From: Rhynchopus sp. YZ270_cl-10
Lineage: Eukaryota
Assembly: GCA_964035575.1 (NCBI GenBank)
Contig: OZ037833.1
Location: forward strand, 434,001-498,000
Direction of reading: 5' to 3'
Length of the DNA: 64,000 nt
Positions 5,843-63,494 of this stretch are shown here, piece by piece. Numbering within the stretch: the first letter of the stretch is position 1; each line of letters starts with the position of its first letter. The notes below the pieces were generated by a model that had not been told where the DNA came from, did not search any database, and saw only the letters and a list, made by a program, of their open reading frames with translations. Position numbers and translations under genes: made by a program.

Positions 5843-5978
5843 TGGGGGTCCAGCCTCGGAGCTGGACCAAAAGCTGGAGGCACCAACTAGCGGGTGCGGC
5901 ACCCCCCGAAAAGCGGGTGTGGCCACATACGCTAGGTTGAGGCTCCCGTTTGACTCCAGCTCAGAGGCTGGACCTCCA
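5843..5978. repeat. Fold-back element (nested inverted repeats)
   Basis: GGTCCAGCCTCGGAGCTGGA versus TCCAGCTCAGAGGCTGGACC are 19/20 complementary, with an inner CTAGCG...CGCTAG stem. Confidence 0.7.
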
Positions 5979-6658: not shown

Positions 6659-8770
6659 ACTCTTGCAAAAAAAAATTTTTTTTTTTTTTAAAGTTGAAAG
6701 TGCAAACCTCATCGGTCGACGCAGACACCAAAATAATTGGATTTTTTTTTGTAAACACTGCTCAAGTACTTTACGAGGTCGCCACTGAGGGGGAAAAAAC
6801 CTGGCGTCCTAACAAAACCCCCTTAACTTAAACCCTGGCTTAACTCTATGAGGGGAGAAAAAAAAAATGTAATCAAGATGCGCTTAGGGCTTCGTCACCT
6901 TAAAAATCAAAATTATTACGCATCCACTTGCCGTTTGAATAAAGAAAACAAAGACGAAAAAGGGGGTTTGGGGGGAAGAGTTTAATTCTTGAACGCATCC
7001 CCACACTCAGGTACACCTTTTTTTTTTATCACCAAACGCTGCTCACAATGTTGAACGAAAGAATTTTGACAATTTTCCTGATGAAGATGTAGTGTGTGTG
7101 AGTGAGATGGGGAGCACGGGAGGGAAAAAGACGACTCGTGGATACTGAAAAATTTCCTTAGAAATGCATACATGTCTTATAAAAAATAAATCCTTTTCTT
7201 GGGAGAGGGGAAAAGTGTCAAGTGTCGTTCCCTCAACCACCCCCCTTCCTGCAGTTGTTTGCTGCGTTGGCGCTTCCACACACACTATATCTCACCTGTT
7301 TGGGTGGTGGTGTTGCGGAGCACGGTTGGGGTGAGTGAACGACGTGACACTTTTCCGCTCACAAAATAGTAAAAAAAATAAAATAAAAAGTGGAAAACTC
7401 TGGGCCATTTTTGTACGCTAATATATTTTGGATTTTTGTTTTTCTCCAGTGGCTTTAGCCGTTTTTTTTTTGTGATCACGCTTTGAAGCATCAACTTTCC
7501 TTGTATATTGCATATCCCCAAAAAGAAATAGAGGTGGAGTTGGGGAGGGGGAGAAGGGTGCAAGTGCCTCAGGCGGACGTAGTCACCAGGGGGAAAAATA
7601 TAATAAAAGAAAGAAAAATAGTTTGTAAGATGAACCTACGCACTCAGTGCTTAGTAGCAATCTTACAAAAAGATTTTCTTTAAAAATACAACAGAAAAAT
7701 AAAATAAAAAATGACAACGATTAGAGAGGGGATAGTATGTTTGTTGGGGTTTTTTTTGTTATTTTTGCTTTTGGTAGACTTACTGAAACCAACACAACAA
7801 CAAAAAAAAGAAATTTTTTCTTTTGTCGGTTGTGTGGTAGCGACAAATCAATCAAGGTTAGGATTTTTTCTTTTTTTGTTTTGGTTTTGTTTTGCTGCTT
7901 TTTTTTTTTTGCTTTTTGCTATTTTTACCAGGGTTCATGGCTATGTAACTTCAGTGACCACTTCAGTTACATAATCATAAGGGGTACTAACTTGGTTTTA
8001 GAAGAAAAAAATCCAGAAGTGGGTCGCTTTTGGTGAAAATGGGGCTGACCCACTTTTTTTTCTTCTCAAGTGTTTTCTAAGGAAGAGGGTCAACTGGCCC
8101 AATAACCAACCACAGCTAGTCTCCCCTGATTTTTGCACCTACTCGGCCTTGCACACCATTTCGTTTTGCTTTTTTTTTTGAAAGCTTGGTTGTATTAGTG
8201 TTAGCCACCCTAGAGTGTGCTCCACAACACGCTTTTTGATTTTTTGATTTTGAAAAGTTGAGGTATGAAAACCAGAATAGCCGGTCGTTTGGGCTTCAAC
8301 GGGGCACCGTACGTTGCATATGAGTTACCAACCGAGAAGGGGAAGGGAGGACAGGGGGACACGAGAGAAAAAATGAAACACGTAAAAAACATAAGAAGGA
8401 ATACAAAGCCCTCTCGTGAACAGTGTACCCCAAAAAAAAAAAGAAAAGCTTGGTGGAAACACCACCCTAAAGGGGAAAAAAACAACCCTTTTTATTTCAA
8501 TACCACTAACGCGACAACGGTTCTTTTCCTTCGTCTTGGCAGCAATATAACTATATGACCTTCAAGCCTTTCTTTGACCACCTTTTTCACTTGAATTTGT
8601 GGTACTTTTATGAGCGTATGTTTTGGGATGTGACCTTTTCCCGATTATTTTTTATTCGGTTTTTCTTCTAAATGGAGTTCACCGTCGGTGCTGTGGGAGT
8701 TGTGTCTGCAAGCATGATCTGTGTTTTTGAGGTTGTTTTTTGAGGTTTCTGATATCGCTAGAAAGCATAC

Positions 8771-13934: not shown

Positions 13935-14705
13935 TGGCTTAGAGGAACCTAAGCCTCTCGTGTGCTTAGTCTGATCAGATTGTACTTAATGTTTTGAGCA
14001 TTGGTTCCATCATCAATCAAACTCTCGTGCTTGGTCACCTTTTAAACAATAAAAAAAATTGACTTTTGAAATGTAACTCCTTCTGACCAGTGAACCGGGT
14101 TGGTATATCATCTGATACTGGGTGGACCTCAATCATGCAGTCCTACATCCATTTCGTGGTTTTACATCTGAAAAAAAAAGAAAACAAAAAGAGTTTGAAA
14201 CGTGCTAAAAAAGAAGAACAGTTTATAAGATGATACAAAGCCTCTCTGTGCTTAGTCACCTTGGAAAAAAAAAATGGAATACCAGGTTGGCTTTTCGTTA
14301 CTCTATTTGGGAAGGCAAAAAATGCCGGTTGTAAAATAATAAAATAGGTTGAAAGTGCAAAGTTAGTCAAGGTATGGTGAAAGGCATTTCCTCAGAAAAG
14401 TGTTTGATTATCCCCCGGAGTAACAAAAAAAGAAACGTCCAAGAAACAAAAATGCCTCGTGTGTGCGCACTAAAATAGAGGGAGACAAGAGGGGGACAAA
14501 AACAAGAAGAGGATTGATTTATCAAGATAATCGCCTCTCGTGGTTAGGCACCTTAAGGAAGGAACCTATGATATGTTTCAAAAAGAAAGAAGAAAAAATG
14601 AAAAGAAAATTTTATAAGATGATCCTCATGCCTTCTCATGCTTGGTCACCTTGATCACAAAAAAAAAAAAATGTAAGATGAATGTACCTCTCTCGGACAC
14701 ACTAA
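13935..14705 (-). repeat. Cluster of ~7 degenerate retrotransposon 3'-hairpin stubs (family A)
   Basis: Variants of TAAGATGAACCTAAGCCTCTCGTGCTTAGTCACCTT at ~13944, 14018, 14220, 14450, 14520, 14610 and 14672. Confidence 0.75.
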
Positions 14706-14794
14706 AACACACATCTTTTTCAAAAAAAAAAAGAGAAAAAAGTGAAGTTGATAGTGCAAACGCCTCTGGGACGCAGGCACTGACACTCCGCGGG

Positions 14795-17700
14795 TTATCG
14801 AACCCCGGAGTGATGTGCATGGGTGTGGTTTACAGGGAAGCTGTAAGCAGGTATACAGTCATTACCCCACCCTGATCGGGAAGGGGGGACAGCATGATTT
14901 AAAGATTCAAGAAAAGCACGTGTTTTGGCACACAACACTGGGCGTCTGCTGAATCCGATGAGCGCCGGGGCGCCGACGGAACGGAGGGAGTGCACACGAT
15001 CCCTCTTCACACCAGGGAATGGGGCGCGGCGGAGATTCGCTGTTAAAGCTCGCATGTTAGCCTTGACGATGAGCCTTTGCATGACCCGCCCACGTTCACG
15101 GATATTAGAGGTCTGTTTGGCGAGGAAGACCCTTGTGCGCAATTCGAAGTCGACCGCGAGCTCGACACACGACACGTCGCGGGGTTCTTTGCTCCACTCG
15201 AGCGTAATCACCCACCACAGGAAAGTTTTCAAAGTGAACGCCTCCCTATAGCTGGAGGAAAAACTAGGCCGTAGCTTGGTCAGGTAAGTGCGGAAGGGGG
15301 TATCGCGTTTAGAGGCAGCAAATGTGAGATTCCAAGGATGTACAGCCGGGGCCACATCCGTTGGATTTGAGAGGGTCGTGTCGATCGTGGTGACGGCATC
15401 GAGGAGAAGAGACTGTACCGCCTTCACCGCCACCTTGTTCACATTGGAGGGCACAATGCCGTGCAGCACAAAGCAGGTGGGCAGCCCCTTGCCATAGAGG
15501 CTGATGGCCGACGCATGTAAGGCAGTGAACGCCGCTGTGTGGACAATGCTGCAGTGCCACAGTAGGTGGCGTGTGTGGCATGTAACCTGGATGAGGCACA
15601 AGGGGCATTTATCGCTGAAGTCTGCCTCGGGTAAGCCACTGCGCTTGAGCCCTGCTGGATGGCAGAAGAGGACTCCGCCACACAGAACACGTCGCATCCG
15701 GAAAGCCTTGAGGGGGTCGTGGTACTGTAGGGTGTGCCACAGGGCATTGGTGGCGCGGGTGTCAATGCCGTCGCTTATGCCGTCGTACGTAGGGCGTTTA
15801 CTCTGCAGATCATCCCAGACCGCCGTACGCGCCAGAGCTCGCACTTCATGGGCCCTCTTGGCTTTGTCTGTCCCGATGATGGGGATAGTCTTCGCGGTTG
15901 CAGACGTAGACGTCACTGCCCTCATCTCAGGGTCCCAACTCACGTCACATCTGCGGGAGGCGGCGAGGACAGACCCCACTGGACCAACTGCATGCATAGG
16001 TGTACCCCGGGTTGCCAGGGTCTCGTACCTCTCTCTGATGCTCATGCACCTCTGGCGTATGGCGTCATTGCGTTCCACACTGGCGGCGTAAGCTCTGAAC
16101 GTCCTGCATATTGCACTCGAGAGGGGGTGTGCCACGTGCGCCTTCAGGCAGAGTGTGAGCAGTGCATCCACTGAACGAGTAAGGTAGGTGGGGCCCCAGC
16201 AGCACATCGCCACCGCCGTCGATAATTCATTCATCACTGACTGAGGGGGCATGTTGAAGGCGGACTCATATAACACTGAAGGGAGGATGGCAGAAGTGGC
16301 GATAGACACCTTCTGGGAGAAGGAGAGCTGTGTCGCACCCAAACATGAGAGCGCCCTAATGGCTGACTGGTATACCGTAGCGTTGTAGCGCCCCTTGCTC
16401 CGTAGGGAGCTGTACATCATCACGCCAAGTGAGCGAAGCGACTTAGTTGTCTGGAACACATGATTGTCCTCAGACTTCAGCGTGCATTTGTGGTTCTTCA
16501 GCGATGAGAAGGCATAGGTCTTCGCCATGTTGAGGCGCATGCCTGTGAGGCGGCAGAAGTCCTCCACTCGCAACAGACACGCCCCCACCGAAGCTTCGCT
16601 ATGGCGAGACAGAAGGTATGCGTCGTCAGCAAACGACCGTACAAACGCCTCAGGTACCTCCGCCGTGATGCAGTGCGTCAGGACCGACATCAAGGCGTTG
16701 ATGAGCACCACAGAGAGTGGGCACCCCTGCAGGATCCCATTCGTCACGGAGTACGCCTCTCCTACGCCGGAGGGCAGCTTGAACCGCCGTCTCAACGTGG
16801 CGTACATCGCTCGTATAGGTGTCATGATCCTGGGGTGAAGCCCCATCTTTTCAACAAGATCTAAGGTGAGGCCTTGCGGTACGCGATCGAAGCATTTCGC
16901 AAAGTCTAGTGCCAGTCCGTGTAGCGGTTCGCCACCGAGCAGAGCGTCCTCCATCTGTGTGAAGACGTCATACAGGACATCGTTCGTGCTGTGCTTTGGG
17001 CGGAAGCCATGTTGCGACGGGTGTGCCCATTGTTCCTGCCATTGTTGAACTGCCTGCAGGCGTGCGCAGGCCCATAACCGGTATACCGCACTGGTCACAG
17101 TCACAGGACGTAGCTTCAAGGGGGACTGGTCTTCGCCTTTGGGAAGGAGCGTCACCAGGGCGGTCAACAAGGCTTGTGGCCACACACCGTTCGTTTCTAT
17201 CGTGTTGAACACTCGAGCAAAACCTTCCAGTATGCATAGGGGCATCGCATGAAGTTCCAATGAGCGCCAGCCATCAGTTCCGCAGGCGTCCGTGCGCTTA
17301 CCTTTCCTGTCGAGCGTTCTACGCAAGTCAGCACCACTTAGTGGGTCTAGGGACATCGGGGAATTTGCGACGAAGCTGCCGAAACGTTGCTCGAAAGAGG
17401 CGAGAGTTGGCTCGGGATGGTCGTGGTCGTATAGGTTGAACACTGACTTCCACTCATCACGCAGTAGTTTGTCCATCTCCCTGTGATTGGCCGTAAGCAC
17501 ACCGTCCTCTCCCCGAAGGGCGGAAATAGGAACACCCTGTTTCCCCATGCACCACGCTGTGAGTTTCCGTCGCTCGCTGCTAAAATCCACCTTCAGCTTG
17601 GTGGTGTACTGCTTCTCGCGTTGTAGCCGGGTATTGCGTATCTCGAGGTTCATAAGCGCCTTGGACTTGTTCAACAGAGAGTTAAGGATCTGTAGCTGCT

Positions 17701-19237
17701 TTTCGAGCGCGGGTGGGACTGTCGTCTCCTCGGACCTCAGCAACTTGAGCGTGACTGCGGTGCGGAACACTTTACCCCAGGCGTTACGCACAGGATTCTC
17801 CATCACCCCACCAGGACAAGATTCTGTCTTCGCAATGAGGTCCGTGAGCTTATACTCAAATTTGGCAAGTTGGTCCTGTCGGGGGGAAGACCCACCAACA
17901 GACGCCGGTCGCGTAGGTGCACACACCGGTTTCAGCACAGGATGGGGGATCTTGGAGCGGCCGCAGAACCCTTTGGAGAGCGTGTCACCAGCTGCCTTTG
18001 CCGCGAGCAGGAGAAACTCTTCCCCAGCCAGCGCGATCGCTTCCCACGCATCGTCAATGTCACCGGACGCAAGTGTAGCGGCACAGTTGTGTTGTTGTAG
18101 AAGGTTCTTGCCGACTGTCTCAGCATTCGCCACCGTCCCAAGTTCCGGCATCTGTTTGGGGATGGTATACCGAAGTGTCGACTCTGTAAACACAGAGAGG
18201 CAGAGTCGCACGTTGACGGACTTGTGGCTGGGGATGCAGTTGATACGATGTGTCCAACAGCTATGGACGGCATGTGCAGCGACGCTGTTCAGCAAGATGT
18301 AATCGATACGGGTCCCTGCTGAGTCTTTGCGGGTGAACGTGGCAGGGGGCTTGCCGTCATCCCCAGTGCTGCCCAGGAGCGCGACGTCGCACCAGTCCTT
18401 GGCGAGTGCTTTCCGCAATGTTGGTGATCTTTCCACATCAGTGTTGAGGTCGCCGCACACAATCAACGGAACGTTACCCAGGGTTTCTCGAAACTTCACA
18501 AGCACTGTGTGGAGGAGTTCTTCGCGTGCAGCAACTGTAGCTCTTGGCGTGTCACCTGACGGGGCGTACACATTCACCACATGCAGGAACAGACGGCCGG
18601 AACCAAGCGCTACGCGCGTGTGCACCACACGTTTCCTCAGCTCGGGCTTCAGAGAAGACGTCAGTTCGGTGTCCAGGAACATGATGCCCGGTCTCTTCAG
18701 CATGGTGGCCACTCCCCCACGTTCCCCAATGTGTGGACTGCGGAGGCCATGGACGAGTGTGCCATCCATGGGGGGGCCCCATTCTGGAGACCAGACTGTG
18801 GTGAAGAAGTCGTTCATCTCCAAGATCTTGGACTCGGTCAACTTTGTCTCTTGTAGACACACTATATCGCACTTCAGGTCGCGTATGATATGTGCGTAGT
18901 TCTGTAGGGATGTGCAGTTGATGGTGGTTAGCGTGAGGGTGTTCTCAGCAGCGGAGCAGCACGTACGCGAGGAGGAGGATCTATCCGTTGAAGAGGAAGA
19001 AGAAGAAGCAGAGGTAGAAGAAGATGTGTCTGAGAGTGACGGGGGGAAAACGGGGCGAGGAGAAAACGATGCCAAGGATGATGATGATGATGATGATGAT
19101 GAGGAGGAGGAGGAGGAGGTACGGTTTGGGAAGTGGCGGGGACCAGGGCGCGTTTCGATGCACTCGCGAGGAAGCTGCTCGTAGTTGTAGGCGGCGAGTG
19201 ATTCCGGAAAACGCTTCGTGCTGTTGGTGTGGGGGAG
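14795..19237 (-). CDS. ORF2: apurinic-type endonuclease, reverse transcriptase and CCHC finger
   Basis: APE motifs TINC, CLQET, VYAP, GDLN, RIDY, SH. RT motifs LRPVT, QHGFR, LDFAKCFD, GILQGCPLS, FADD. C-terminal CPLC..H....C. The frame is open from 19237 to the stop at 14795. Confidence 0.95.
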   Translation of the reverse strand, partial: LPHTNSTKRFPESLAAYNYEQLPRECIETRPGPRHFPNRTSSSSSSSSSSSSSSLASFSPRPVFPPSLSDTSSSTSASSSSSSTDRSSSSRTCCSAAENTLTLTTINCTSLQNYAHIIRDLKCDIVCLQETKLTESKILEMNDFFTTVWSPEWGPPMDGTLVHGLRSPHIGERGGVATMLKRPGIMFLDTELTSSLKPELRKRVVHTRVALGSGRLFLHVVNVYAPSGDTPRATVAAREELLHTVLVKFRETLGNVPLIVCGDLNTDVERSPTLRKALAKDWCDVALLGSTGDDGKPPATFTRKDSAGTRIDYILLNSVAAHAVHSCWTHRINCIPSHKSVNVRLCLSVFTESTLRYTIPKQMPELGTVANAETVGKNLLQQHNCAATLASGDIDDAWEAIALAGEEFLLLAAKAAGDTLSKGFCGRSKIPHPVLKPVCAPTRPASVGGSSPRQDQLAKFEYKLTDLIAKTESCPGGVMENPVRNAWGKVFRTAVTLKLLRSEETTVPPALEKQLQILNSLLNKSKALMNLEIRNTRLQREKQYTTKLKVDFSSERRKLTAWCMGKQGVPISALRGEDGVLTANHREMDKLLRDEWKSVFNLYDHDHPEPTLASFEQRFGSFVANSPMSLDPLSGADLRRTLDRKGKRTDACGTDGWRSLELHAMPLCILEGFARVFNTIETNGVWPQALLTALVTLLPKGEDQSPLKLRPVTVTSAVYRLWACARLQAVQQWQEQWAHPSQHGFRPKHSTNDVLYDVFTQMEDALLGGEPLHGLALDFAKCFDRVPQGLTLDLVEKMGLHPRIMTPIRAMYATLRRRFKLPSGVGEAYSVTNGILQGCPLSVVLINALMSVLTHCITAEVPEAFVRSFADDAYLLSRHSEASVGACLLRVEDFCRLTGMRLNMAKTYAFSSLKNHKCTLKSEDNHVFQTTKSLRSLGVMMYSSLRSKGRYNATVYQSAIRALSCLGATQLSFSQKVSIATSAILPSVLYESAFNMPPQSVMNELSTAVAMCCWGPTYLTRSVDALLTLCLKAHVAHPLSSAICRTFRAYAASVERNDAIRQRCMSIRERYETLATRGTPMHAVGPVGSVLAASRRCDVSWDPEMRAVTSTSATAKTIPIIGTDKAKRAHEVRALARTAVWDDLQSKRPTYDGISDGIDTRATNALWHTLQYHDPLKAFRMRRVLCGGVLFCHPAGLKRSGLPEADFSDKCPLCLIQVTCHTRHLLWHCSIVHTAAFTALHASAISLYGKGLPTCFVLHGIVPSNVNKVAVKAVQSLLLDAVTTIDTTLSNPTDVAPAVHPWNLTFAASKRDTPFRTYLTKLRPSFSSSYREAFTLKTFLWWVITLEWSKEPRDVSCVELAVDFELRTRVFLAKQTSNIRERGRVMQRLIVKANMRALTANLRRAPFPGVKRDRVHSLRSVGAPALIGFSRRPVLCAKTRAFLESLNHAVPPSRSGWGNDCIPAYSFPVNHTHAHHSGVR

Positions 19238-19750
19238 TCAGTCGCGCTTAGGTGACGAGGCCGCCCCGGTGAATTGAGGGCGGGAGTAGTCGTGGGATTT
19301 ACCGTCCTGCGCATTCGGGATGTGGATGGCTCCCTTGAACTGCCTCATCTTGCGTGTGGGCCGGTCCTCCGGGACCGTCTCGCGAATGAGCAGGGGTTCG
19401 TGATAGTCCCCTCGCGCTATCTTCGTGAACTGGGGTCGTTCCTGTGCGCACACGATGATCACATGCTGGCGTTTCTTTTTGTATGAGGAGACACACTTGC
19501 AGTCGAATCCCGAAGCCTGGAGGGTTTTGACGATGTCCTCCCTCAGCTCGTACTGGCGCGCTCCGAGGACGGTGTACTTCATCGCCCGAGGGTCCATCAA
19601 CGGCGTCACATTGTTCACCCCAATGTCGTTGACCGCCTCCGCTGTCGCGTAGTTGTTGGTGAGGCGGATGCCGAGGCCCCCCCCGCTGCCGATCACCAGT
19701 CCCAAGGTGGTTTCCTCATGGGAGTTGCAGAACTCCCACGCGTGGTCCAT
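19238..19750 (-). CDS. ORF1 of the retrotransposon (170 aa, unknown function)
   Basis: ATG-started, GC-rich ORF directly upstream of ORF2 and in the same frame. Confidence 0.7.
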   Translation of the reverse strand: MDHAWEFCNSHEETTLGLVIGSGGGLGIRLTNNYATAEAVNDIGVNNVTPLMDPRAMKYTVLGARQYELREDIVKTLQASGFDCKCVSSYKKKRQHVIIVCAQERPQFTKIARGDYHEPLLIRETVPEDRPTRKMRQFKGAIHIPNAQDGKSHDYSRPQFTGAASSPKRD

Positions 19751-19988
19751 TGTGAAAAAAAAAATTCAAAAACAGAAAGTCTCCAATAAGACTTGATGGT
19801 AAAATATATGACTTCTTACTTTTTTGGCCTAAGGACCAAACAACGATGAAATCATCCACATAACATTTCTAATAATTCTATGTTGTTTTGCATCGACACC
19901 CCATTATAGGGAAACGTCATTTTTTTTTGCAAATCTAATATATTCCCCACCCCTTTTTCTAGTTTTAAAATATTTTTGTTTTTTTGTG

Positions 19989-22900
19989 TCACTCCCATGT
20001 TTCATTGTGGATATGAAATCTGAGTCTTCGGCGAAGGAGGTTAAGCTTATCGACACTCTTCCGCACCGCGATTTGCATCGATTTTGGCCCACAAACGACA
20101 ACTGCTGCAGCACGAATCTGCCCGTTTAGCCCAGGAATATCAGGATTTCCAAGCTCATTCTGGACACTGAGGGTTTCGAAAACGTCTGGGTGCTTCGATG
20201 CTGACCCGCCCCCTTGAAAGAGGTTCGGCCTCCCTTGGTACAGGATCTGCACTCGTTGACACCCTAGGGTGTTTGCCTTTGCGTCTGCAATGGACTGCAT
20301 ATGGTCTACATCGCATTGTCCTGGCACCTCTGTCTGTGGAGGCTGCATTTCAACCTCAGCGTTTGTAAGATTCCCTAACAGATTCCCCCCGGTCTCGTGA
20401 AGGTACGCTCTGAAGACGAAGTTCAAATTTGAGGTAGGTTTTTCGTTGTCAACGTCCAACGCCATTCGGATCGTTCCGGTAGGTTGTTGTCCACAGAAGA
20501 GATCGAATAAACGCCGATCCTTCGCCGCCCATACTAAAGTAATCACCTTAGTTCTGCTCACCCCAACCGGAAGTTGCTGTCCCCATCTCGGGTCCAAATA
20601 GTACTCCAACATAGACATCAATGGAGCGGCGCCTAGCCCTCCCGCAATCAATACAACGTGTTCATATCTCCGTACATCAACGCAGGGTGATCCGTACGGT
20701 CCCATAACCCGAATTTTCCCTAATTGGCGAGATTCAGAGTGTTGGTGAACCTTTTGCGACCAGGTTCTCATATGAGGATGTGATGCGATGTGGAAGGTGA
20801 ATGCTGTAGTGGGTTCTCCTCGGAGCGGTTCCATTTGGTCGTCGGCGATGTGGACGGGGCGGCTGGACATGGCAACACTGTGCCAAGAGTAGTCGATGGC
20901 AGGGAAGGAGATGAGAACGTACTGCAACGGAGAGAGCCGGTCGATCCCGAACTCATCGTGGAAAACCGAGTAGTTGGAGACAGCGATCTTCACTTCCACA
21001 GAGCAGACCTGCATATCACCAAAGGTGCCTTCCTGGTATGAGGCAACAGCACTCCGTGTTGACCCATCTTGAAAGCATGATGGCGGCGCGCACCCCATCC
21101 CACCATGCGCAATGCCCCAATGGTAAAGCCAGTACATCACCTCAATAAAAACAAGGACCAAGGTAAAGACTGTGCCATAAATGAGTTTCCAATAGTGAAC
21201 ATGTGCCCAGGTGAATGCCCAGAGAGCACAGAAGAGTTCGAGACGGCGGAAGGCGGTGGGTTTGAACCATTTCTGTTGTAGGGTGAAGATTATTTCATAT
21301 ATCAAATCTACTGAATAGAAGGTATACCATGGTGCACTATAAAGGGTGAAGATGAAAAGGAAAAAAAGCATTTTAGTTTGGTATCTGAACAAGGGGTGGG
21401 AATGACACAAAGGCATACCCTCCTACGTTGGTCTGACATCGCATTGAGCAGGACCACACCAAGCACTCCGAAGAGAGAGAAGAAGCCGGGCAGACCTGCG
21501 TGCCGCCCTGTGGTGCCGTCATCCCAGGACAGTGCATCCGAGGAGTAGTGTGCGATCTGTGTGGTATTGTGAATAGGGTATTTCGGATACTTTACATAAA
21601 TCCGATAGAGAGAGACAATGTGTTGGCTATGTGGGAATGGGAGTGGAGGGAGCGGAAGGAGTTTATTTGATAAAAATTGCAGAATTTAGTTTTCAGGCAT
21701 GTCACCAAAAAGGCGAAGGAGGGTGTGAAGTGTGGGTAATGTACATACCATCCCAATGCCGTGCACCAGCAGCAGCACCAGAAGCAGCCTGCAGTTGAAG
21801 TTATGCCACCTCCGCGCGCGGCGCTTCGTCAACGCGAACATCCACAGTACAGGGGATGAGTTTGTCAGCGGGATGAGGAAGAGAGAAAAGCACAACAGCG
21901 CCCCTGCACCAAAGGCACGTACTTCTGGAGCAGAAAGACGGTCCTGTGTGGAGACGGGTTGTGCGTTGTGTAAAGAGAATAAAAAAACAAAAAAAAACAT
22001 ACCCGAGAGTACTCCTTAGCGTACAACCCTACCCACATCGACACCAACACTATGTACGACAGCACCAAAAACGCCTGAAACGTTGTCAAATGGAACTCCT
22101 CCATGCCCTGTCAGGTGGTATTTTTATTTTTTGAAAATCTTTCTATTGCCATACCTGAAACAACACCGAAACGCGCCACAAAAAGTTTTTCGGTGAATAC
22201 CGTGTAACATAGTACCCCGAGCATGCCATGAGCGTGAGATAGAGCACCGTGAAGTCGATCCACCAATATGGCATGCTTTCTTTGACACAGCTGCTGTCGA
22301 CGGTGCCATCTTCGAAGTGGATGCAGACAGTGCCTTGGGTGGTGTGCATTGCTTGGTCTGCAGGGCCGTAGGCGTAACTCACGTAGTAACTGTTGAGGGA
22401 CGCATTCGCAAGCGAAACATCGGCTACCGCATCGGTTGTCAACAACGGCCGTTTGAACTTCACGGTGTACTTATCGCGCACCCCGGTTTCCTCGAAGGAA
22501 ATGAAGGTAAGCCCTGGAGTGCCCCCTTGCTGAGAGTCAGGCAGCACCGCGCCGTTGTGTTCAACGTCGCCTGCCCAGCAGTCCTGGAGCATTGAATCAT
22601 CTGGGTCGATTGTGATGTCGCGGTCCACCTTCCATACGTCAGTGTTCCGCATGCCCGGTTCAAGGGAAATGCCCACCGCTCCTTGCATCTCTGCCTTCAG
22701 CATGATCGTCACCCAAATCTCCTTCGGGGTGCTTGCAGTATTGACTACCCAACAGAGACGGAATTCGTCTACAACAAAGTCATGACAAAACTTCATTTCC
22801 GGCGACTGTCCTCCTGCGGCAAAGGGCACCGGAGTGGACCCCACCGAGCTTGAGGTGGAGGCGCGGTACGCAACCTGGGTGGATCCTCTGTCGGTGCACT

Positions 22901-25900
22901 GTTGGATTTCTTGCGTCTCAGGGTCGATCCCTCCGTAGCCCCACAGAAGCACCTGGCTTGCCACCAACGGATCAATCGCAAGATCGTCGTACGCAAAGGG
23001 GCTGATCGGGGGGTCCAAAACCACCATCGGGTTGTTTGAAATCCTCGCTAAAACGCTGTAGTCCCCTTGCATGCCTGCTAGCTGGCTTGTGGAGGTAAGG
23101 TTCCCAACCGCGTAGTTAGCATCCACAGGCACCGATACATCCCAGAACAGCGTGCTGTAGAGGGTGTCAGAGGCGCGGGTAAAGGTCTTCGCTTGGGTAA
23201 AAATCGCGTTGTTTGCAACAGGGTCTGCGTTTCTAGTGGGGACAAACTTTTCCTTCAGTGCTAAAGTGTCAACAAGACCGAAGTTGAAGTACGCGATTTT
23301 GACTCCTTCAGCCCATCCGTTCAGTTTTGGTACTGTAGTAGCATCTTGCGGTTCGAGGGAAGAGAGCGGATCGACCACCCAGAGGTTAACTAATTGTTCT
23401 GTGTCGTATGTCTTCCAAGATTCGCGTTGCACGACTTCAAGAACGTCGGAGACTGTGGTGATGCCGCCGAAAGCTTTTGAAACGGGGTCGGTCCCATCGC
23501 CCAGCCAGTTTCGTGGCACCTCCACGATGACCAGCTTGTGTACATCCGAATATACATTTGAGGCGGCCGTATCCTCAAAGGGAACGTTCAATGAGAATGA
23601 CACCGCCACGTCTGACAGCGTTTTGATTGAATCATCGTTTGCCCCCGACGGCAAATTTTCGAACACCGGCGCCAGCGCTGCAACCGCCTCGCCAAACCTA
23701 TACAACGTAGCCCCCGTTTTTGCGTCCTCATTTTGAAGCCCCTCCGCCTCACGCACAGTCACCGCAGTCGGGTGACGGAACACAAACACTCTATCCGCTA
23801 AGGCATGCGTCATATTCCCTGGAACCGCATTGGGGGAAGAATAATACCACAACGGACGGTCCGCATAATAGCCTTTCTCCCTTGATAGAGTGACGAGAGG
23901 CGCTGAACGCGAGGTATGTGACACTGTAGGGCACGTATAGTGCACAACCGGCTGATGGCAGGTACCATTCCAAAAGCAATGCTCCCTCGGGCAGGTCACC
24001 TCGGAGAGCTTCTCGGCACACTCCTTCATGGTGCTGTCCACCGCTGTGATAGGATGCTCATTTGTCCCCTCTGCCAGCCGGATCACCTCAAGGCATGTTC
24101 CTCCTATGGCACGGCTCATGACATAAGAGATTTTGTTTTGTGCGTTAACGACTTTGTACAGTATAGTAGGGTTCGCGAATGCGGTGGAAAATTCGGGGTC
24201 AGAATTTTCAAAATATCCGAAATTGATTCCGGTCAATTCTTGGTTGTTATGGTAAAATGATACGGTCGGGAAGAGGTAACGGTGGGCACGCTCTGCAAGG
24301 ACTGAAGCGGGGTGGATCGCCGGGGTCAAACGGGAGAGAGATGAGGCTACGACAGTCCACGTCTTTTGCAGGGTTTCGGAAAGCAACGCGGATTCCGATT
24401 TTATGGGAAATGCAGTCGCAGCGTAGTCTCCATTCTGAGGGATCTCCACAACAGAAATAGAGTGGAGGTCTGAGTACCCTGCTTGCCCTGCGGAGCGAGA
24501 AACTATCTCATAATTTTGTGCCTCAGCCGCAGTAAAGACAGTTTCATTGAAGCGTAGTGCATAGCTGCTCATTGACGAAATCGGTTGATTGCCTACTGCA
24601 GATTCCAAACTAAATGGAAGCGGGGTGTTCATCAAGGCATAGAAGAACACCCTCAGACCTGGTCTTCCACTGACGTAGGCACTCCGTTTTTCGTAGACCT
24701 TTTTCTCATCCACTTCATTGCTTTGCGTGCTCGCGGAAGGAGCAGATAAAATCGGAAACGCATGAATCGAAGCAGGATTGATCGGATATGTGCTCTGTGA
24801 TAGCAGGTCTGTCGTTGGGTCGAATGTATCTGGTGAATCTGGGGCCGCCCACAGAGTGTGAAATACTGAGTATAGAGGCGATTCGGGTAGGTATGGGAGG
24901 AGGATTTTGCCGGATTTTACACGATATGCACGGAGAACAGTACGAACGGATTGTTCGGCAAGCTGCATGAAGTAAATTTCGTAGCTTTTGTGATACCCTA
25001 CACTCAATGTGACCCCCGACGGCGGCTGTGTCGTTGCAGAGCAGACCGGCCAATGATAATAAATTCCCCCTCTTTTCCGCGCAGGCCACCTCTTTCGCGA
25101 GATATCCAACACCGAGGTAACCTGCTCTGCAGTCTCCCCGGACGGAATCAACACCTCCTGCAGTTCTACCAAATCCGAATACCCCACGACACTTCCATTC
25201 ACGATCCGTTCATTTGCCGGAATCGCCTCGAACACTGGCAACAAATCCAACACCCTTTCATTTTGCAAAAAAATGTACACCCGGTTGACTGGGATCTCAT
25301 AGGTAGATTCATACGGAACGACATTTGTACGTTGCGACGCCTCGGTAGGCAGCGTCAAAGGGTAGCGAAACGAGGCATTCACGACCGGCCAAAAATTGAG
25401 GATCTTCCCCCGGTAGTACCCCACTCTCGGCAGGGCGAGGTTGTACTCCGGGAGCTCCTTCGCCTCCAACATGCTTTGCTCCACCTTTTCATCAATGTCT
25501 AATACAGGATAATTCAACGCCCACGGCATTTCTACCACAGTCATCCCCAACACTGCTGCCTCCGACCGATACAAATCCCCCCCTGGAGCAACCGCAGCCG
25601 GTGCATACACATAGGGACGTACCAGCCCTGTTGTCCCCCCAAATGGCAGCGTATTGAAGACACGCCCATTTTGGGTTGCCACCTCCGTCTCATACACCCT
25701 CCCCGGAACTAAGTCTGCGAGAAGCGGAAGTTGTTGGGTACCCCGCATTAAAACCTCCCACCCTTCGTTGTATGTTTCAAATGGTGAGGAGTAAGTCCGT
25801 GCATTAATTGCACCCCATCTCGGAACCTCACCTTGAGAAACAAAGAGACACTCAATAGTGGTGTCGTTCCAATACCATGAGAGGCGTGGGATTGCGAAGG

Positions 25901-28900
25901 GAGTGCCGTCCTTGGTGACGGTGGTTGCGCTGTGGGAAACCGCGCAGGTTATTAAAATGCTGGTGGAGGTGCGAACCCAGGAGGATGGAATGGAATCGAT
26001 CGAGGTAATAGGGAGCGGGGTGCTGTGGACATCGGGTACGGTCACCAAGGTGGCCTTCCAGATATGCGAATACCCGGTCTGTCCTGGAACAACAGAGGCA
26101 ATGTTTGCCTGCGTCTCTGGCGCCCAATATGCAGCAGCGCCAGCATCGGAGGGGCGACGAAGACAGAATACCTCTGCAGTGACGATACTCTTTTCGTCCA
26201 CAATCGGCATGCGTCCGGTCACACCATTGTTCATCGGAGTGTCATCCACCTGATAATACCCTGGATCCGATAAGTCTATGTAATAATTCTGCACACCATT
26301 GTACCACCCCTTTTGCAACGCAATGTCCATGGCCTTCAATGCTATTGCCTCCCCGGGGTCGATGGACATAATTTTTATGTTGACAATCTCAAGCGGGTTT
26401 TTCCTTTGCAATGAAGTGGTCACAGCGAGAAGGTCTGTTGCGCTGTTAATCCCATCCCTCGCCCCCTTCGGAACCACCGCGGAGTATACTATCTTAATAG
26501 GAGAGTACTGCACGGAGGATGGAATGTCTCCGAGAATGTATTTCTGTACGGCAGGAGCCAGCACCACGCTCTCATCCTCTTCGTATATTTCGTACATCTT
26601 GTCGATGGTGTTGTGCGTAAGATTGGAGAAGAAAGCGCAGTTCACCACCTGGCCTTGGTACCATAGCTGTCTCAGTTCTATTTTACTGTCATTCTGTTCG
26701 AATTGAGCCAACGCAGATACAACAGGGCAATCCCAGTAATAGTCTGTTTCTTCTACATAGGCATCTACAGCACGAAGCTCTGCCAAGGAGGTGATGTCAT
26801 CCGTCAACTGATCCGGCAGTCTCACACGACGGACCTTCATGACGTCAGAGTAGTCTGACAGACCTGGGACCGAATCGATGATGGACAGCCTTCCTACGGG
26901 GTGCCATAGCTCGTAGACGTACATAGTGTTTAGTAAGCCAGAATTTTCTGTTGTTTCGGTCAACGTATTCTTGACAATGTAGTGCGACACCTTCGAATTC
27001 AAAAAGAACGAATCGGTCTGTGTGTACGTCGCAGGCTTATCAAGAGGGAGCGGCAGACCTACGGAGGGTGGGCTGTTTGGGATGGACGCATTCCCGGTGG
27101 TCAGTTTCCAGTAGATGTCGGTGGAGCCGCGCATCGCAATGCCGTTAGAATGGATGTGCGTAATGTCGATTGTGCCTGCACCGCATTCACCTGTCGTCCT
27201 GCTGTCGCCTGCTGCGTAGAGTACCCTAGCTGCAGTGAAAGGGTCCTCCGGAATGTAGCCTTCGGGGTCATGTGCTGACCCAGTATATCCCCTAGTAAAT
27301 GAAAGAACAATTTTTCTCCCAGTAACCTCGATTTTTTGATCAGCAAGCGTCATGGTTGCGCGGGAGGTATCCGGAGGGCCTGAAATTTGGTCGGAATAAG
27401 CGGATCTGATACACGAAGCGCCATGCCGATCCGACATTCCGACCACCAAATCAGCGTTGGTCATTTGCGTTGACCCGACGTCTGAAAAGCCAATTCCGAC
27501 ATAACCCGGTTCGTACCTCGCGTCGAACAAAGCCTCCATCTGCACCTGCACCACACCAACCTCATTGGAAACAGTCCACCGCAAGAATATTTCCGCCATA
27601 GGAAAGACATTTGTTGACCCCTCTGCCGGGTACACCTTCATCTCTCTTGTGTATCCATGGGATGCTTCCACGGGAGCTGGGGTTTCTTCTTCAGCTAAGG
27701 CAAGAATGTTAAGAATAAACCGGTTCACGTATGTAACGCTGCTTAAGGTAGGGTCGAAGGAAGCTGAATCCGAGACGTTCGCTGGTAGCAGCGAGGTGGA
27801 GTTGATAACAGTAGTGTTTCCGTCGGGGAGTTGCCAGGTCTGCATCAGGAAGATCCCGGTGTTGGTCTGCATGGTGCTGTTCAGCTCTGCGGAGGATATG
27901 TTTACTAAGGCCGCAACCGGGGCGGTGCCTTCACTGTGAAGCTGCTCCCACATCAAATTGATTGACGAAACGGAATAGGTGTTTGGCACTTCTTCCGCAG
28001 TTTCCCAGGATTGCATGGGGGATTCGACGAATGCACCCATTTTTACCCCAAAATCGATGCAATAAGTTGGGGTCGTGCTGTCGCGGAACCACATAATCAT
28101 TTTGCTCACCTTCACCCCATATGAGTTTCGAACAGACGATCCAGAGCTGAGTGTCGGGCAATTCAGCCAAATCTGTGTCCTCCCTCTCCGCCAATCCTGA
28201 GGAATTGCGTGCGCCCAGCTTACGATACCTGCCGTATAATTTGATGGAACCACCGCATAAAATACCTGCTTTATATCAGAATAACCTTGAATTCCTGGCA
28301 ACGCTGTGGTTAATGGATACTGCCCGGGAATGCGATTATTTGAGACACGCGACGTAGTTGATTGAAGAAACGCACGCACCGCGTCATGACGTTGATCCCC
28401 TAATAACGCAGCCTCATCCTCCTCATCGATCAGAAGGTATACCGGCAGCGCCTTTGGCACTCCATCAGAACCAAATACACCGCCATTTGTCTCGATTTCG
28501 ACGTACGCGAAGTTCTTCGTGTCTTCCGTATAGCCTATCGTCTCTGCAATCAAAACTTCTCGCCCCAAGAAGAGTGGGGTAGGGGCGAGAGAAGATGTGT
28601 GAAAGTCGTTTGTCGTCAGAGGGCGAGAAAAGTTGATGACAGTGGACAACGACGTCACCTCAGTCCCAAGAAGTGTCAAATCCTGCTGGAAGTCCATGAC
28701 CGGTCTAGCCAACCCCGCGCTCTTCCTATCCTCAACCCGAACACTCCCTCCCCGATCAATCCAAACAGTCGCAATATCCGCAAACGAAAACCCTTCCCCA
28801 ACCCCAATCCCTACCCAAACATTTTCTGCACTGATGTTCCCAGAGTATTTTATGCTGAACCGAATTTCGCGAGAATTTTGCATTTCCCATGACACCGAAA

Positions 28901-30461
28901 GACGGGTATTGATCAGCTTCTCTCCATGCATATCTGCGAAGGGAATCACCGGGGCTGCAGTCACCGCAGTCAAAAACGGAGAAGGGGTAAGAATAGGGGG
29001 TTCTACTAGAGGTGCGTCGCTTTGCGCTGGGGTGTCGGAATCGGTCCAGAGGGACTGCACAGAACGCCACTGAGTTTGGTATAGACTGTTGAAGAGCGAG
29101 ACCCAGCTTTCATTGCATCGAGGAACCAAAGGGCCTCGTTGGACTGACCAGGTGAGAACCCCGTACTGTCCTAATGTAATGTCAGAGTCGGGGCGGTGCT
29201 TTCCTGTAGAGTCAAAGGCGGAGGCATCGAAATCGCGTTCAAACATAACGTACATCTCTCCACTGCGCAGAACGTTCATCTGCACATTGCGAACCCCCAT
29301 CAAATTGTCTGATGATAGTACCGGATCGGGAATGCCAGAAGAATACGAAGAGTCTGCAGGAACATAGCCAAATTGGGTGCACACTTCATCCCCTTCTTGA
29401 GGAACATAGAATAGCGCGGTTTCGGAGCCGACAGATTGAAGCTCTGCCACACTACGCGCTGCAGAGAACCCAAGACCCAACCACCCGGCACCAAATCTGG
29501 TAGAAAACAAAAACGTTACCGTCGAAGTGTCTGCGTCTGCAGTGTATTGCAGAGTCGTTAAATTCGAAAGAGCTACGGTATGTTGAAACGTTGTCTCCCA
29601 AAACGGTGCGCCCACCGAAGAAACATGCCAGGTTACGACCGGAGCAATGTCAGGATCATCACCAAATTGCGTAGGAATCTGCGACAATCCCGCAAATGAG
29701 GTGACCGAATTCAATATGTAGGTCGCCGCGACGTTCACGTTGCGCTTCACAAAATAGGGGATGAAACTGTGCACACCTGGCGGAACTTCGAGAAGTGCAT
29801 TCCCCTCCACCCTTTGCGGCGTAGGAAGCCTTTGCAGCACCCACGCTATGAGACTCCCATTGCTCGTTTTCACGCCATGATCACGACCTGGGTAATGCAA
29901 CACATCGTTATGAAGCACCATACAATAATGTGCCGCTCCTTCTACTATATAACGCCTTAAAACTGCGGTTTCGAATTGAAGGGTAGCGGTGGTTGCGACA
30001 GAGGGGCAATGCAGAAAGGTGCCTTGGGGAATGAGGTTCCATCCGTTTTGTTGTACTGCGGAGGTGACGTCGGAGGCAGATTGGAGGGAAAGCTGTTGAA
30101 ATATTCCGGCATCGGTTGCGGGGATGGCCACCACAATGATACGCCAGATTCCTGTGTATTTGATTGCGGTGGAGGAGCGGGTTTCAGTGTCCCCTAAGAT
30201 CGCGGTGTCGGCTATGTACGGCGAATCTGCAATGGGGGATAATATGCCTGCATCGTTGACAAAAGAGAAGTGGTACATCGTTGCCGGTGGGTCCGAGGAG
30301 GTCACTAACTCTGCCCCAGAGAATTCATAGTATTCGAGCCGTCTGCCGGACACCCATCCCTGTTGTTGTGTGATGCGCCCGGTGGGGACGGCAGCCTCAG
30401 CACGCCAGGCCTCCTGCACAGCCAGGAGCAACATAAGGCATCGTAGATACCGAAGAAGCAT
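19989..30461 (-). CDS. Giant (~3,342 aa) signal-peptide protein: 4 DOMON domains, repeated YSD modules, ferric-reductase transmembrane region and FAD/NADPH domains; exons 30461-22155, 22107-22003, 21943-21749, 21556-21419, 21272-19989
   Basis: Four phase-0 GTATG...CAG introns join the ORFs in frame. DOMON motifs GWLGLGFS, WVGIGV, YVGIGFS..MTNAD, GMRNTD. Heme His pair in RRWH...LVH. GPYG, LIAGGLG, CGP and HNETW motifs. Confidence 0.85.
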
Positions 30462-36500: not shown

Positions 36501-38191
36501 TTTTGTAAAGGGGTGGGGGAGGAGGGGGTGATTCTGTTCTGTAGTGGCGGTTGTGGAGTTGGTGAGGTGGGGGGGTAAAACATAAAACAAAAACGGAGGC
36601 AGTCTTGGGTAGTATTTTCTTGTTTGTTGAAAACTTGGTATTAGTGTAGACACCCGAGGATGAACTCCACTGTGCTTGTTTGTTTTTTTTGTGTGCATTA
36701 TTTGCAAACCACAGAGAGGGAACAGGGTGGTGATGGTGTGACCAGGGTCACGTCAACATGACCTTCCTCCACTTTGTCTTGTTATTTTTCCTTTTTTGCT
36801 TTTTTTTTTTGTGTGTTTTTGTGTTGGTTTGCTTTGTTTTTTTGCATCGACGATCATCCGATGGGTTTTGTATGGGGTTATGTACACCCAAATCTACCCT
36901 GACAAGCGTTGAGATACTTACAGACAGAATTTTTGATTTTTTTTTTTATACCCAGTTGCCCGGAAAGTTAGGAAAGAGAGTTTTTTTTTATTATACCCAC
37001 AAGCGTAGCTTAGAGGAGAAATAGTTCCTTCCGATACGGTCGCCAATCTCCCCTCAAACAGGGTAATTGAGCCATCAAACGAAAGGCGCCTTTTTTCTTA
37101 CTTACAAGTATACCTATCAGAGTTACTATTTTTTGGGTTGCTTTTTTGTATTTTTTTATAACTGCGACAGAAAATGTGTGTCGCTGTTTTGTTTTGAAAA
37201 ACTTGGTTGTTTTTATATCAGTGGACACACATCGCACTCCACTAATTTATTTTGTAAAATTTTGTAAAATCAAACAACCACCCGAAAAAATAAGTTCTGA
37301 AGGGAGACAAATGACAAAGGCACACTTCATGAGAGAGTGGAACATGTGAGACTTTATTTATTTTTTTGGAAACAATGTTTTTGAGACCATTTCTTTTGGG
37401 TCTGGTTGGTTTAGCTGCCATTCAAGACTTTCTTTACTATTTGTAAAAGGTTTCGATGACTGCCTTCATAGAGGCCCCCAAAAAATAAAATAAAAAAGGA
37501 ATTCTTGACGCAATGGCACCTCTGACGTACCCACTGTACGATGCCAGCCATCCGGGATGAAAGAAGAAGAGAAAAAAAGAGAAGTTGACAATGCAAACGT
37601 CTCTGGGACGCAGGCACGAAAAAATAAAAAGATCGAGTCTTTGTCTGCGCTAAAAGCCGGGCGAAAATAGACAATTGCAACAGGCACGGTCATTTCCCAA
37701 AAAAAAAAGCGTTACGCATAAACGAGAACACTGTACATCGAACGAACCCCATGTTAGGTGTGCCAAAAAAAAAAAAAAAATCTTTTTCGCAAGACAAATT
37801 TGTGAACAAAAGACACAAAAGAGAAAAGAGAAAAGTTGGGGTACAATTTTATGCAACCCCAAAAATTGCAATAAAAAAATCATCCTTTTTTATCAACGCC
37901 AATATGGGCCATATATTTGTTGCTAACAAATAGCTCAAATTCTTTCATTTGTTTGGTCATATAAACAGACCACTTCACAGCTTCAGGCATATTCTTATTT
38001 GTTGCTGATGTGCACACAGACTAAACACTTTACATAAAATAACTTGGACTCCTCCTCCTCCTCTAGGCCTATTTTTTGTATTTTTTCTTGCACACACATT
38101 GGGGACCATATTCTCCATGAGAACCACCCCCCTTATCAACACACAAAACACCATCCCGCCTCTCTCCTCCTCCTCCTCCTCCTCCTTTTCA

Positions 38192-38983: not shown

Positions 38984-38989
38984 AACATT

Positions 38990-39702
38990 GGCACAAACCA
39001 TCACAATACACTGAGTAGTGATTAGTGCCAGTTCAACAGCAACGATATGAACAAGCCTTTGAAGATATGAGTCACATGGAGAGGGCATGGAAAAGAAGAG
39101 TCCTGTTCTGTTTCTTTGTTGTGAACAATATAAGAAAAACAGCATAAATATACTGCAGCAATATCATACAATGCAGCGAGGCACAGAGCACGCCTGAAAA
39201 ATGGCTTGGCTGAAAAATGCGTCTGAGGCGTGGCTGAGGCATACAAGTATTCCCGAGTACGCCTCAGCCACGCCTGGGCATTATTCATCCGTCCATAGCC
39301 AGGCCGACTTAGCCTCGTTGCATATGATGGGAAATGGAAGAAAGAACTAAAATGATGAGGTTTTCTGTTGTTCTAAAGCAGTGCAATAATTACGGTCATC
39401 CACGAAACAGGTTGCCAAGGTATCAAAGGTGAAAAAGCATGAGTGGCTACTTGCCATGCACAGCACACCACACAGTGGTATGTGCCTTCAGCCTGTTTCA
39501 TTACTGAGACACCACAAGGCAACGGCGTGTCAACCATGCAACATGAAACACACTGCCACAACAAAACTATAAACAACGAACAAACAAATCCTTTCAAGAC
39601 GAGTGCTCCGCGCACACATCTTTAAAGTGGAGGTGGACAGGTGACAACAAATTAAAAAAGAAAAAAAAACACTGACGACGGCCGGGAACGTATCCCGAAC
39701 TG
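38990..39702. repeat. ~710-bp direct repeat, copy 1
   Basis: Near-identical to 40900-41614. Confidence 0.95.
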
Positions 39703-40114
39703 ATGTGTCGTACAGGTCGAAAAGATTGAGAAAAGAATATTGAAAAAGATGAACCTAAGCCTCGCTTAGAACACCTTCATACAATCGTTAAGAAAGGCTC
39801 TATTGTGTGCGACGGTGCATTAGCAGGCAAGATGCGAAGATACAAATGAACGTTCAACCCCAACTCTTCCTGACCTGTTGTGAGGTGTATCTCTTTCCTC
39901 TCAACAGCAGGAAGTAAGGGGAGACGGACGTATCTGCCGTATGAGGGGTGTGAGGCGATCACGCGAAATTGGAACGAAAAAAGAGAAGTTGAAAAGTGCA
40001 AACAGGAAAATAACATAATCATGGACAAGCGCTTGAACAGACCATGGGGGAGAAAACAGTTTCACAACTTGGGAAGGTGTGGGGCAATGTGCAAGCAGTC
40101 TGCGTTGCACGTAT

Positions 40115-40816
40115 CTAGAACTGAGAAGGGTACGCCTTCACGGGCAGCATGTTGTTGCCCTGGACAACGTGTGCAGTAGGAGCCACAGCCTCCACATCAG
40201 CAGTGTTGTTTGCAGGGGCAGCATCAGTCCACCCAGTGAGGCAGAAGAGGAGGCAGTTCACGATACCAAGCCCAGCCGCAACAAAGATGAACGGAATCCC
40301 GTAGTTCAGGGAGCACTCAGAGAGGGAGTGGTCGTTGTCACTCGAATGGAGCAGCGAGTCGTCGTTGATGAGGTTCTTGTGCACTGCACCCAGCAGGATC
40401 GAGCCGCAGATCACCGCAAACAACGCTCCAAACAGGTGGATGAAGCCAGCAAACCTCCCCACAGACTGCGGCAGCATGCCCACACACGACGCAACGAAAA
40501 ACGTGATTGCAGACATAATGGCAAACGCCTGTGCCGCCTTAAAGAGTGTGCTCACCTCGTCCAGGTCCTTTGTCTTGATTTCCGTCCCTGAAATCCACTC
40601 ACCAAACAACATGAACGATTGCCTACCTCTGAACAGCCCTGTCGACGGCATGGGAAGCTCAGTCACCGCAGGCAGCGTCGGGTTCAAGACAATGGGATGG
40701 TCAAGGGACACAAAGCAAGCCTTCGTCACACTGTTCTCCGCGACAGCAGTTGCAATGATCAAGCATATCGCAATAGTGCTGCACACCAACATCACGACGC
40801 GTGCAGTGGTGCACAT
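40115..40816 (-). CDS. Amastin-like four-TM surface protein
   Basis: Four hydrophobic segments with FKAAQAFAIMS and YGIPFIFVAAGLGIVN, resembling amastin motifs. Confidence 0.75.
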   Translation of the reverse strand: MCTTARVVMLVCSTIAICLIIATAVAENSVTKACFVSLDHPIVLNPTLPAVTELPMPSTGLFRGRQSFMLFGEWISGTEIKTKDLDEVSTLFKAAQAFAIMSAITFFVASCVGMLPQSVGRFAGFIHLFGALFAVICGSILLGAVHKNLINDDSLLHSSDNDHSLSECSLNYGIPFIFVAAGLGIVNCLLFCLTGWTDAAPANNTADVEAVAPTAHVVQGNNMLPVKAYPSQF

Positions 40817-40899
40817 TGTTTTGTGTTTTGTGTTTTGTTTCGTAGAGTTACTGAGTCGTGGTGTGGGTAGGGTGGGTGGGTGGGTGGGTGGGTGGTATG

Positions 40900-41614: not shown

Positions 41615-41960
41615 TGGCACGCCAAGCTCCGCAACAAGCTTCCCCTTCACCTGTGCAAGGGTGGCGCTCCCGTCCACTTCTATCACACAGCTTGCAGACT
41701 CGAAGTGTCCTGTGATGTCCATGTTCAGGGGGTGTAACTCTGGGAAGGGTGTGTACAGGGCACTGGAAGAGGAAAATATGTCAGGAGCTCCGAAAGCATG
41801 AGGGGCAAGGCAAAGGTAGTGTTATGTATTACTCAAGGGGATGCGTTGTAAACGAAGGGACCTCTGAACCGGTGAGTCATCTCATAAGAGAAAAATATGC
41901 GTTACTTCGCTTCTCCCCAACAATGCCAGAGGAAGATTTCCAAGCAGGGGTTGTCAGGAC

Positions 41961-63493: not shown

Positions 63494-63494
63494 G

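Follow-up and report, generated by a model that had tools for sequence, protein, structure and literature searches.

A long interspersed nuclear element (LINE) must regain its 5′ end in every cycle, and trans-splicing should destroy that end. Trypanosome LINEs are described as solving this with an internal promoter and unspliced RNA, a solution proposed as a general trait (PMC1874656). The same question is raised by a LINE copy in a 64-kb stretch of Rhynchopus sp. YZ270_cl-10 DNA (assembly GCA_964035575.1, contig OZ037833.1, positions 434,001–498,000), hereafter the window, whose own coordinates are used throughout; the analysed element lies on its minus strand. A preliminary description had presented this copy as an element without poly(A) and without a 5′ untranslated region (UTR), beginning 1 nt before the ATG of its first open reading frame (ORF1), and had suggested that it relies on host read-through transcription and trans-splicing in place of a promoter of its own. 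Our analysis shows instead that the window copy is 5′-truncated, and its full-length relatives appear to be headed by a DNA copy of a spliced leader; the family probably retrotransposes from host-transcribed, trans-spliced mRNA. A leader-headed euglenozoan LINE would be the opposite of the trypanosome solution, in that the host would transcribe and cap the RNA and the element would insert where that happens.

The window copy and its ends

The copy, which we assign to a family termed A, encodes an apurinic/apyrimidinic endonuclease (APE) and a reverse transcriptase (RT) in its second frame (ORF2) and occupies 5005 bp between two copies of the target-site duplication GTGAA. Its parts are as follows.

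14747–19751, minus strand: family A LINE, 5′-truncated, APE-RT, 5005 bp
14742–14746, minus strand: 3′ copy of the target-site duplication, TTCAC on the element strand, then T-runs
19752–19756, minus strand: 5′ copy of the target-site duplication; 19752–19755 also fit the element's ORF1, giving a 4-nt microhomology at the truncation joint
19238–19750, minus strand: C-terminal 170 codons of ORF1 (Met374–543 of a 543-aa protein) and TGA; predicted RRM-like domain at ORF1 residues 425–504
14795–19237, minus strand: ORF2, 1480 codons, in the same frame as ORF1 and directly after its TGA
about 18907–18275, minus strand: APE domain of ORF2, codons 111–321
about 17122–16421, minus strand: RT domain of ORF2, codons 706–939, with a Cys/His cluster beyond it
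14747–14794, minus strand: 3′ UTR, 48 nt, without poly(A); terminal hairpin at 14781–14753 and a second hairpin at 14812–14784 that overlaps the stop codon

Much of the preliminary description of the copy itself was confirmed in the sequence, including the minus-strand LINE with its GTGAA duplication, the 3′ hairpin, the absence of poly(A), and the ATG at 19750, which lies 1 nt inside the duplication and opens a 170-codon frame. At its 3′ terminus the element reads hairpin-TATCAAC, followed by TTCAC and T-runs, and its final 69 nt form two hairpins (z −4.15) whose stability was equalled in none of 200 shuffles. Four of the five duplicated bases (19752–19755) fit the element too, which leaves 4 nt of uncertainty in its 5′ boundary. 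The empty site, previously reconstructed as a continuous A-tract, is indeed an A-tract, but one broken by a few G and one GTG. Among the 15 of 47 contig joints listed, none shows the empty site of this insertion.

5′ truncation and longer copies

Contigs of four public sequencing runs were aligned to positions 19330–19900. In all four runs, the majority contig departs from the window at 19755 with one identical 30-letter loose end (agreement 1); translated manually on the minus strand, this end has no stop codon and shares the frame of the window ATG. In runs X4 and X5 the departing contig extends for 804 nt, with depths of 374 and 422 versus 104 and 98 for the contig bearing the window flank; as a rough guide only, these depths suggest about four longer copies.

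Protein records extend the frame in the same way. While a search for ORF1 at near length yielded nothing from 45 candidates, P0036 came from a search for longer proteins: its residues 466–635 are identical to the window ORF1 (170/170), and the residues immediately ahead of 466 are those coded by the loose end at 19755. The resulting ORF1 cluster has six members, namely four long records, a 179-aa record and the 170-aa sequence of the window. Complete ORF1 comprises 543 aa, and the window ATG corresponds to Met374. Because P0036 and the contigs extend ORF1 upstream in frame, the window copy is merely truncated, and because longer copies run on past its 5′ joint, the claim that the element has no 5′ UTR falls. 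The preliminary description had itself allowed that longer copies would reduce this one to a truncation, and such copies exist, both as the four long ORF1 records and as contigs continuing past 19755. A complete element starting 1 nt before the ORF1 ATG would account for a duplication lying so close to the start of a 170-codon frame, but with that ATG internal to a longer protein and the in-frame extension present in every run, we give this version practically no chance. We estimate the full length of family A at about 6.27 kb. Truncation of the 5′ end with microhomology has been described for L1 (PMC10760644).

A spliced-leader match at the 5′ end of long copies

Two of the long ORF1 records, P0036 and P0041, come from separate contigs and carry extra N-terminal residues that translate the DNA upstream, each in a frame of its own. 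A single DNA sequence can encode both N-terminal peptides over 46 codons (60 shuffles: mean 5.9, maximum 7), and back-translation of the pair fixes 139 of the 141 bases of this shared upstream DNA. Further upstream, the two peptides show no relationship in any frame (longest run 6; maximum 8 in 200 shuffles), and their outermost residues are Phe-rich, that is, they translate T-rich flanks. The shared DNA opens with bases compatible with TTCAC and then enters a match to a spliced leader, with 36 identities over positions 2–39 and one extra base relative to a 39-nt leader that PMC3795323 lists as 'Euglenozoa 14'. The alignment scores 31, whereas the highest score was 14 within the 64-kb window and 13 among 2000 shuffles, and when leader-derived peptides were sought in all the proteins retrieved, only P0036 and P0041 contained them. 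We take the 'Euglenozoa 14' row to be the Diplonema leader, the table itself giving no species. No published diplonemid leader carrying a species label came to light, and a search of the seven supplementary text files of PMC10161547 yielded no leader term.

The match ends at the leader's last base and is followed by a UTR of about 115 nt, C-rich and then A-rich, which precedes the ORF1 ATG and resembles several host 5′ regions in the window. In the stretch after the leader we found no Sm-like site, nor does it pair with the 3′ half of the leader; both results speak against a leader-RNA intron. The only AG dinucleotides in the fixed part of the shared DNA (two) lie inside the leader relic. The 98 fixed UTR bases lack AG altogether (as did 46 of 10,000 shuffles), an observation that we do not use as evidence because the A's are clustered in one run and the last codons are not fixed. 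No leader sequence flanks the LINE copies of the window itself: there were four weak leader matches, where about 1.5 are expected, and none stood at a junction.

In dinoflagellate retrogenes of the DinoRL kind, leader sequence encoded in the DNA at the 5′ end indicates an origin from trans-spliced mRNA (PMC12014239). Back-translation places a comparable DNA-encoded leader, ending at the leader's last base, in both of the two informative long records. Judging from these reconstructed 5′ ends, the full-length copies are likely to derive from trans-spliced mRNA. The idea of host transcription and trans-splicing thereby gains support, although on other evidence than was first given for it, namely two long copies with a spliced-leader match at the 5′ end.

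Insertion sense to host genes in T-rich tracts

The window holds further LINE pieces, of family A and of a sister family, B, represented by P0003 and P0058.

37584–37617, minus strand: family A 3′-end remnant, 34 nt, in a T-rich tract with TTC on either side
60771–61000, minus strand: family B (P0003/P0058) insertion, 230 bp, 5′-truncated, with 3′ hairpin and no poly(A); duplication ATGAAA at 60765–60770 and 61001–61006
13941–14657, minus strand: five decayed family B 3′ ends (13941–13971, 14022–14041, 14216–14262, 14533–14555 and 14605–14657), just downstream of the family A LINE
7617–7655, minus strand: family B 3′-end remnant
39746–39790, minus strand: family B 3′-end remnant

The family A remnant ends at the same terminal base as the window LINE, and its two one-sided stem substitutions keep the pairing. 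The insertion at 60771–61000 had been mentioned before as the other insertion, with the duplication ATGAAA. It is real, being missing from two paralogous sites at about 54916 and 63667, but it belongs to family B, matching P0003/P0058 at 98% and family A at 47%; its 3′ hairpin has a z of −3.63. With five family B ends in 720 bp, 13941–14657 is an insertion hot spot, where the T-rich ends left by each insertion may seed the next one.

All ten LINE pieces found in the window (two of family A and eight of family B, at five loci) lie on the host gene strand. The long host frames of the window are all on the minus strand, the sole plus-strand frame of more than 230 codons being antisense within the LINE, and T-runs of 8 or more are equally frequent on both strands (61 versus 61). 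Past the 3′ junction, loose ends in all four of the runs X1, X2, X3 and X6 are A-rich when read on the plus strand, and so T-rich on the element strand; at 14758 they carry GTGAA or GAGAA adjoining the element, and the loose ends at short 5′ junctions are also A-rich. The absence of poly(A) therefore holds across copies. The preliminary description had placed insertion in the sense orientation at TTCAY within polypyrimidine tracts, with a polarity opposite to that of L1; the ten pieces and the loose ends support sense insertion in T-rich tracts with that polarity, and TTC or TTCAY recurs at the junctions.

Flanks read into protein records were compared as well. Among the 15 listed of 37 family A ORF2 records, four have a read-in flank, and the last 12 residues of each contain 5–9 Phe/Leu and no Lys; the same Phe/Leu-rich, Lys-free flank occurs in 2 of the 14 family B records compared. 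P0060 was left out of the family B count, since its additional residues precede the ORF2 start and do not mark a truncation, and P0113, the ORF1 of another family whose six extra residues are not rich in Phe, was likewise excluded. In P0051, translation continues across the 3′ end and gives ...ALSTSL, the residues seen in the window as far as TTCAC; beyond that point P0051 differs, and it contains no Lys run there.

Depth summed over contigs in X2, which we use only qualitatively, is 951,636 at the 3′ end, 1,656 in ORF1 and about 300 in the flank. Loose ends at 14806–14812 reveal many contigs of X1–X3 in which only the element's last 60–65 nt are shared, joined to a different head, about 20 nt long, plus GTGAAAA or ATGAAAA. 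They probably represent subfamilies or very short non-autonomous elements, present in large numbers, that make use of the LINE 3′ end. The many short 3′ ends in sense orientation may influence host 3′ UTRs in the way that SIDERs do in Leishmania.

Coding capacity and classification

ORF2 matches PF03372 (E 1e-14) and PF00078 (E 8e-22), both past their cut-offs, with APE followed by RT in one frame, whereas no RNase H match was obtained in ORF2 (E up to 0.01) or in P0001 (E up to 1). Together with the target-site duplication, the fixed 3′ end, the 5′-truncated copies and the absence of long terminal repeats, this APE-RT frame identifies the element, on sequence features, as an APE-type LINE. 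In the comparison with solved structures human L1 ORF2p came closest (E 3e-18, versus 2e-11 for R2), and an RT tree of 36 rows was built by a quick method, its rows being without clade labels. ORF2 is 36–42% identical, over the searched part, to unclassified APE-RT LINEs of Diplonema papillatum (P0012, P0014–P0018 and P0020–P0024). Scans of metagenomes with ORF2 and with a pattern of the 3′ end gave no match.

For ORF1 there was no Pfam match above cut-off, and its relatives are hypothetical proteins of D. papillatum, for example P0076 and P0078. With the named relatives of both frames coming from this species, the host is likely to be a diplonemid. The structure model of ORF1 (predicted local distance difference test score 71.5) yields putative matches to the RNA-recognition motif (RRM) fold at residues 263–356 and 425–504, with Z about 7.5; the best, at Z 7.6 (root-mean-square deviation 2.6, 77 aligned), lies under the tool's caution level of Z 8. 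Foldseek on the same model returned the RRMs of Prp24 as best match (E 5e-4), and a search of the ESM Atlas (best score 0.85) provides a lead only.

At the border of the two frames (19237–18817, minus strand), a single TGA, with C as next base, divides ORF1 from the in-frame ORF2. All six ORF1 records end at the TGA before ORF2, and ORF2 has no ATG ahead of its APE domain, the first Met falling within APE; ORF2 is likely to be expressed by read-through of the stop or by non-AUG initiation. Ahead of the APE domain lies an altered version of a motif akin to the NPGP-type motifs of P0002, P0004, P0007 and P0011; in L1Tc a 2A sequence occupies a comparable place (PMC1874656). In P0009, the ORF2 of a related LINE, an OTU-like cysteine protease domain (PF02338, E 7e-10) lies at the N terminus.

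A probable cycle through trans-spliced mRNA and its alternatives

The copies share the orientation of a gene cluster that occupies a single strand, and they are inserted at TTC(AY) within T-rich tracts. Starting from such a position, host polycistronic transcription would pass through a source copy, and the leader would be added about 115 nt upstream of the ORF1 ATG. The ORF2 protein would then recognise the 3′ hairpins and nick the A-rich strand after GAA, with priming on the U-rich sequence just beyond the element end and not on poly(A), the reverse of L1. Most cDNAs would abort and be joined through microhomology, as seen in the window copy, whose joint lies 5 nt upstream of an internal Met. 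Finished cDNAs would copy the leader and halt 1–3 nt before its first base, leaving a leader copy in DNA; the halt may reflect stalling at a methylated cap, cap4 being named in PMC1874656. A fixed leader tag of this kind would supply exact 5′ boundaries for annotating diplonemid LINEs.

We regard this cycle of host-transcribed, trans-spliced mRNA as the probable one, and several observations weigh against it. The leader is known by back-translation of two protein records, which assumes one shared sequence; it is matched to another organism's printed leader and not to the host's own; and only two of the four long records have read-through, P0038 and P0039 being without it. Both copies show one clean leader and no tandem of leader plus relic, though re-splicing at the relic's two AG should leave tandems, and because these are absent, the re-expression of leader-headed copies is unexplained. 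On the side of targeting, the ten pieces represent only five loci, for which a one-sided chance is 1 in 32; selection against antisense copies could also produce the strand bias; and the duplications are short (5, 3 and 6 bp), and TTC could be part of the element's own 3′ end.

A bolder version of the cycle would give a promoter-less LINE whose T-rich target plays a double role, priming without poly(A) and serving as the polypyrimidine signal by which the host splices a fresh leader exactly over the old one, so that full-length daughters are rebuilt as complete, translatable and transposition-competent mRNA with an unchanging 5′ end. We entertain it because TG has been suggested as a possible acceptor in dinoflagellates (PMC12014239), but we hold it to be doubtful. 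An unlikely alternative, and one somewhat less favoured than this, is that the leader was captured once and is now a fixed part of the element, perhaps as an internal promoter, with no fresh trans-splicing in each cycle. Both copies have the same single leader–UTR junction without a tandem relic, two positions and one extra base differ from the printed leader, and a leader box may promote transcription in dinoflagellates (PMC12014239), all of which speaks for a single capture. The differences, however, may simply be those of the host species' leader, the match reaches the final base of the leader and goes no further, the outcome expected from trans-splicing, and the host would still splice read-through copies.

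A little less probable again is that leader-headed copies are dead-end by-products and that the lineage persists through a master element, which has an upstream promoter or outron of its own and from time to time is copied from RNA that was not spliced, as in L1Tc/ingi. L1Tc RNA is indeed reported to be unspliced and to start at its own promoter (PMC1874656), P0038 and P0039 could reach further upstream, and leader-bearing transcripts of transposable elements make up about 30% of transposable-element reads in Hydra (PMC12220107), so that splicing of such RNA can be incidental. Against this, both informative long copies begin at the leader, and the strand bias fits reliance on host transcription. 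We see only a very slim prospect that the leader belongs to a CRE/SLACS-like element within spliced-leader RNA genes or to a leader-RNA/LINE chimera made by template switching. The leader in these copies is followed by GT, as it is at the exon–intron border of the leader RNA. Elements of the CRE/SLACS/CZAR group carry a restriction-like endonuclease and insert in leader-RNA gene arrays (PMC12278014). Family A, however, has an APE endonuclease and unrelated T-rich flanks, and the DNA upstream of the two leaders is unrelated, hence no array; the missing Sm-like site and exon–downstream pairing, and the lack of a leader at the junctions of the window copies, argue in the same direction.

Comparison with known elements

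With the APE-RT LINEs of D. papillatum, family A shares an ORF2 containing APE and RT as well as relatives of ORF1. That species has unidirectional gene clusters and leader trans-splicing, and a rigorous analysis of its transposable elements is stated to be still needed (PMC10161547). With ingi, L1Tc, RIME and SIDER, family A has in common that these are euglenozoan LINEs in a polycistronic genome. The ingi/L1Tc clade carries an RNase H domain in a single long frame, whereas family A has two frames, no RNase H match and a probable 5′ end formed by the leader match. The ingi/L1Tc type further has an A-rich 3′ end and duplications of 11–19 bp (PMC2323293), in contrast to the duplications of 3–6 bp (5, 3 and 6) and the absence of an A tail in families A and B. 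Trypanosome LINEs bear a promoter signature of 77–79 bp and produce unspliced RNA, 19 ingi/RIME cDNAs being reported without leader (PMC1874656). SIDER2 has a T-rich motif upstream and is located in 3′ UTRs (PMC2323293).

Human L1 resembles family A in its two frames, APE-RT and microhomology-associated 5′ truncation; the RRM-like fold predicted for ORF1 from the model would be a putative further likeness. L1 has an internal promoter. It primes the T-rich nicked strand on its own poly(A) (PMC10760644). In family A, by contrast, the primer strand is A-rich and poly(A) is lacking. LINEs of the CR1, L2 and RTE types are poly(A)-less, with a 3′ stem-loop and short target homology, and usually end in short tandem repeats; family A is alike in its stem-loop, whereas we saw no such repeats in it. 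The DinoRL retrogenes are host genes copied in trans and re-spliced, leaving leader-relic tandems, while family A is an autonomous euglenozoan LINE with a single, nearly whole leader. We found no paper on a LINE whose genomic copies are headed by a leader, most subscription papers lying outside the literature searched.

Other features of the window

Beyond the LINE, positions 22143–30461 (minus strand) encode an intronless protein of 2772 aa with DOMON domains, adjoined at 19989–21422 by a gene with a ferric-reductase-type NAD-binding domain. Local segmental duplications occupy 38987–48155 and 53704–64000. They include the pairs 38987–39702 and 40897–41614, the B-box genes at 42950–43788 and 47315–48155, CRAL-TRIO genes, and ubiquitin-like and BspA-LRR genes with 75-bp repeats. 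Arrays of short tandem repeats with repetitive open frames lie at about 45400–45700 and 55200–55700, and self-comparison of the window revealed palindromic or inverted-repeat stretches at 1707–1940 and 5843–5978.

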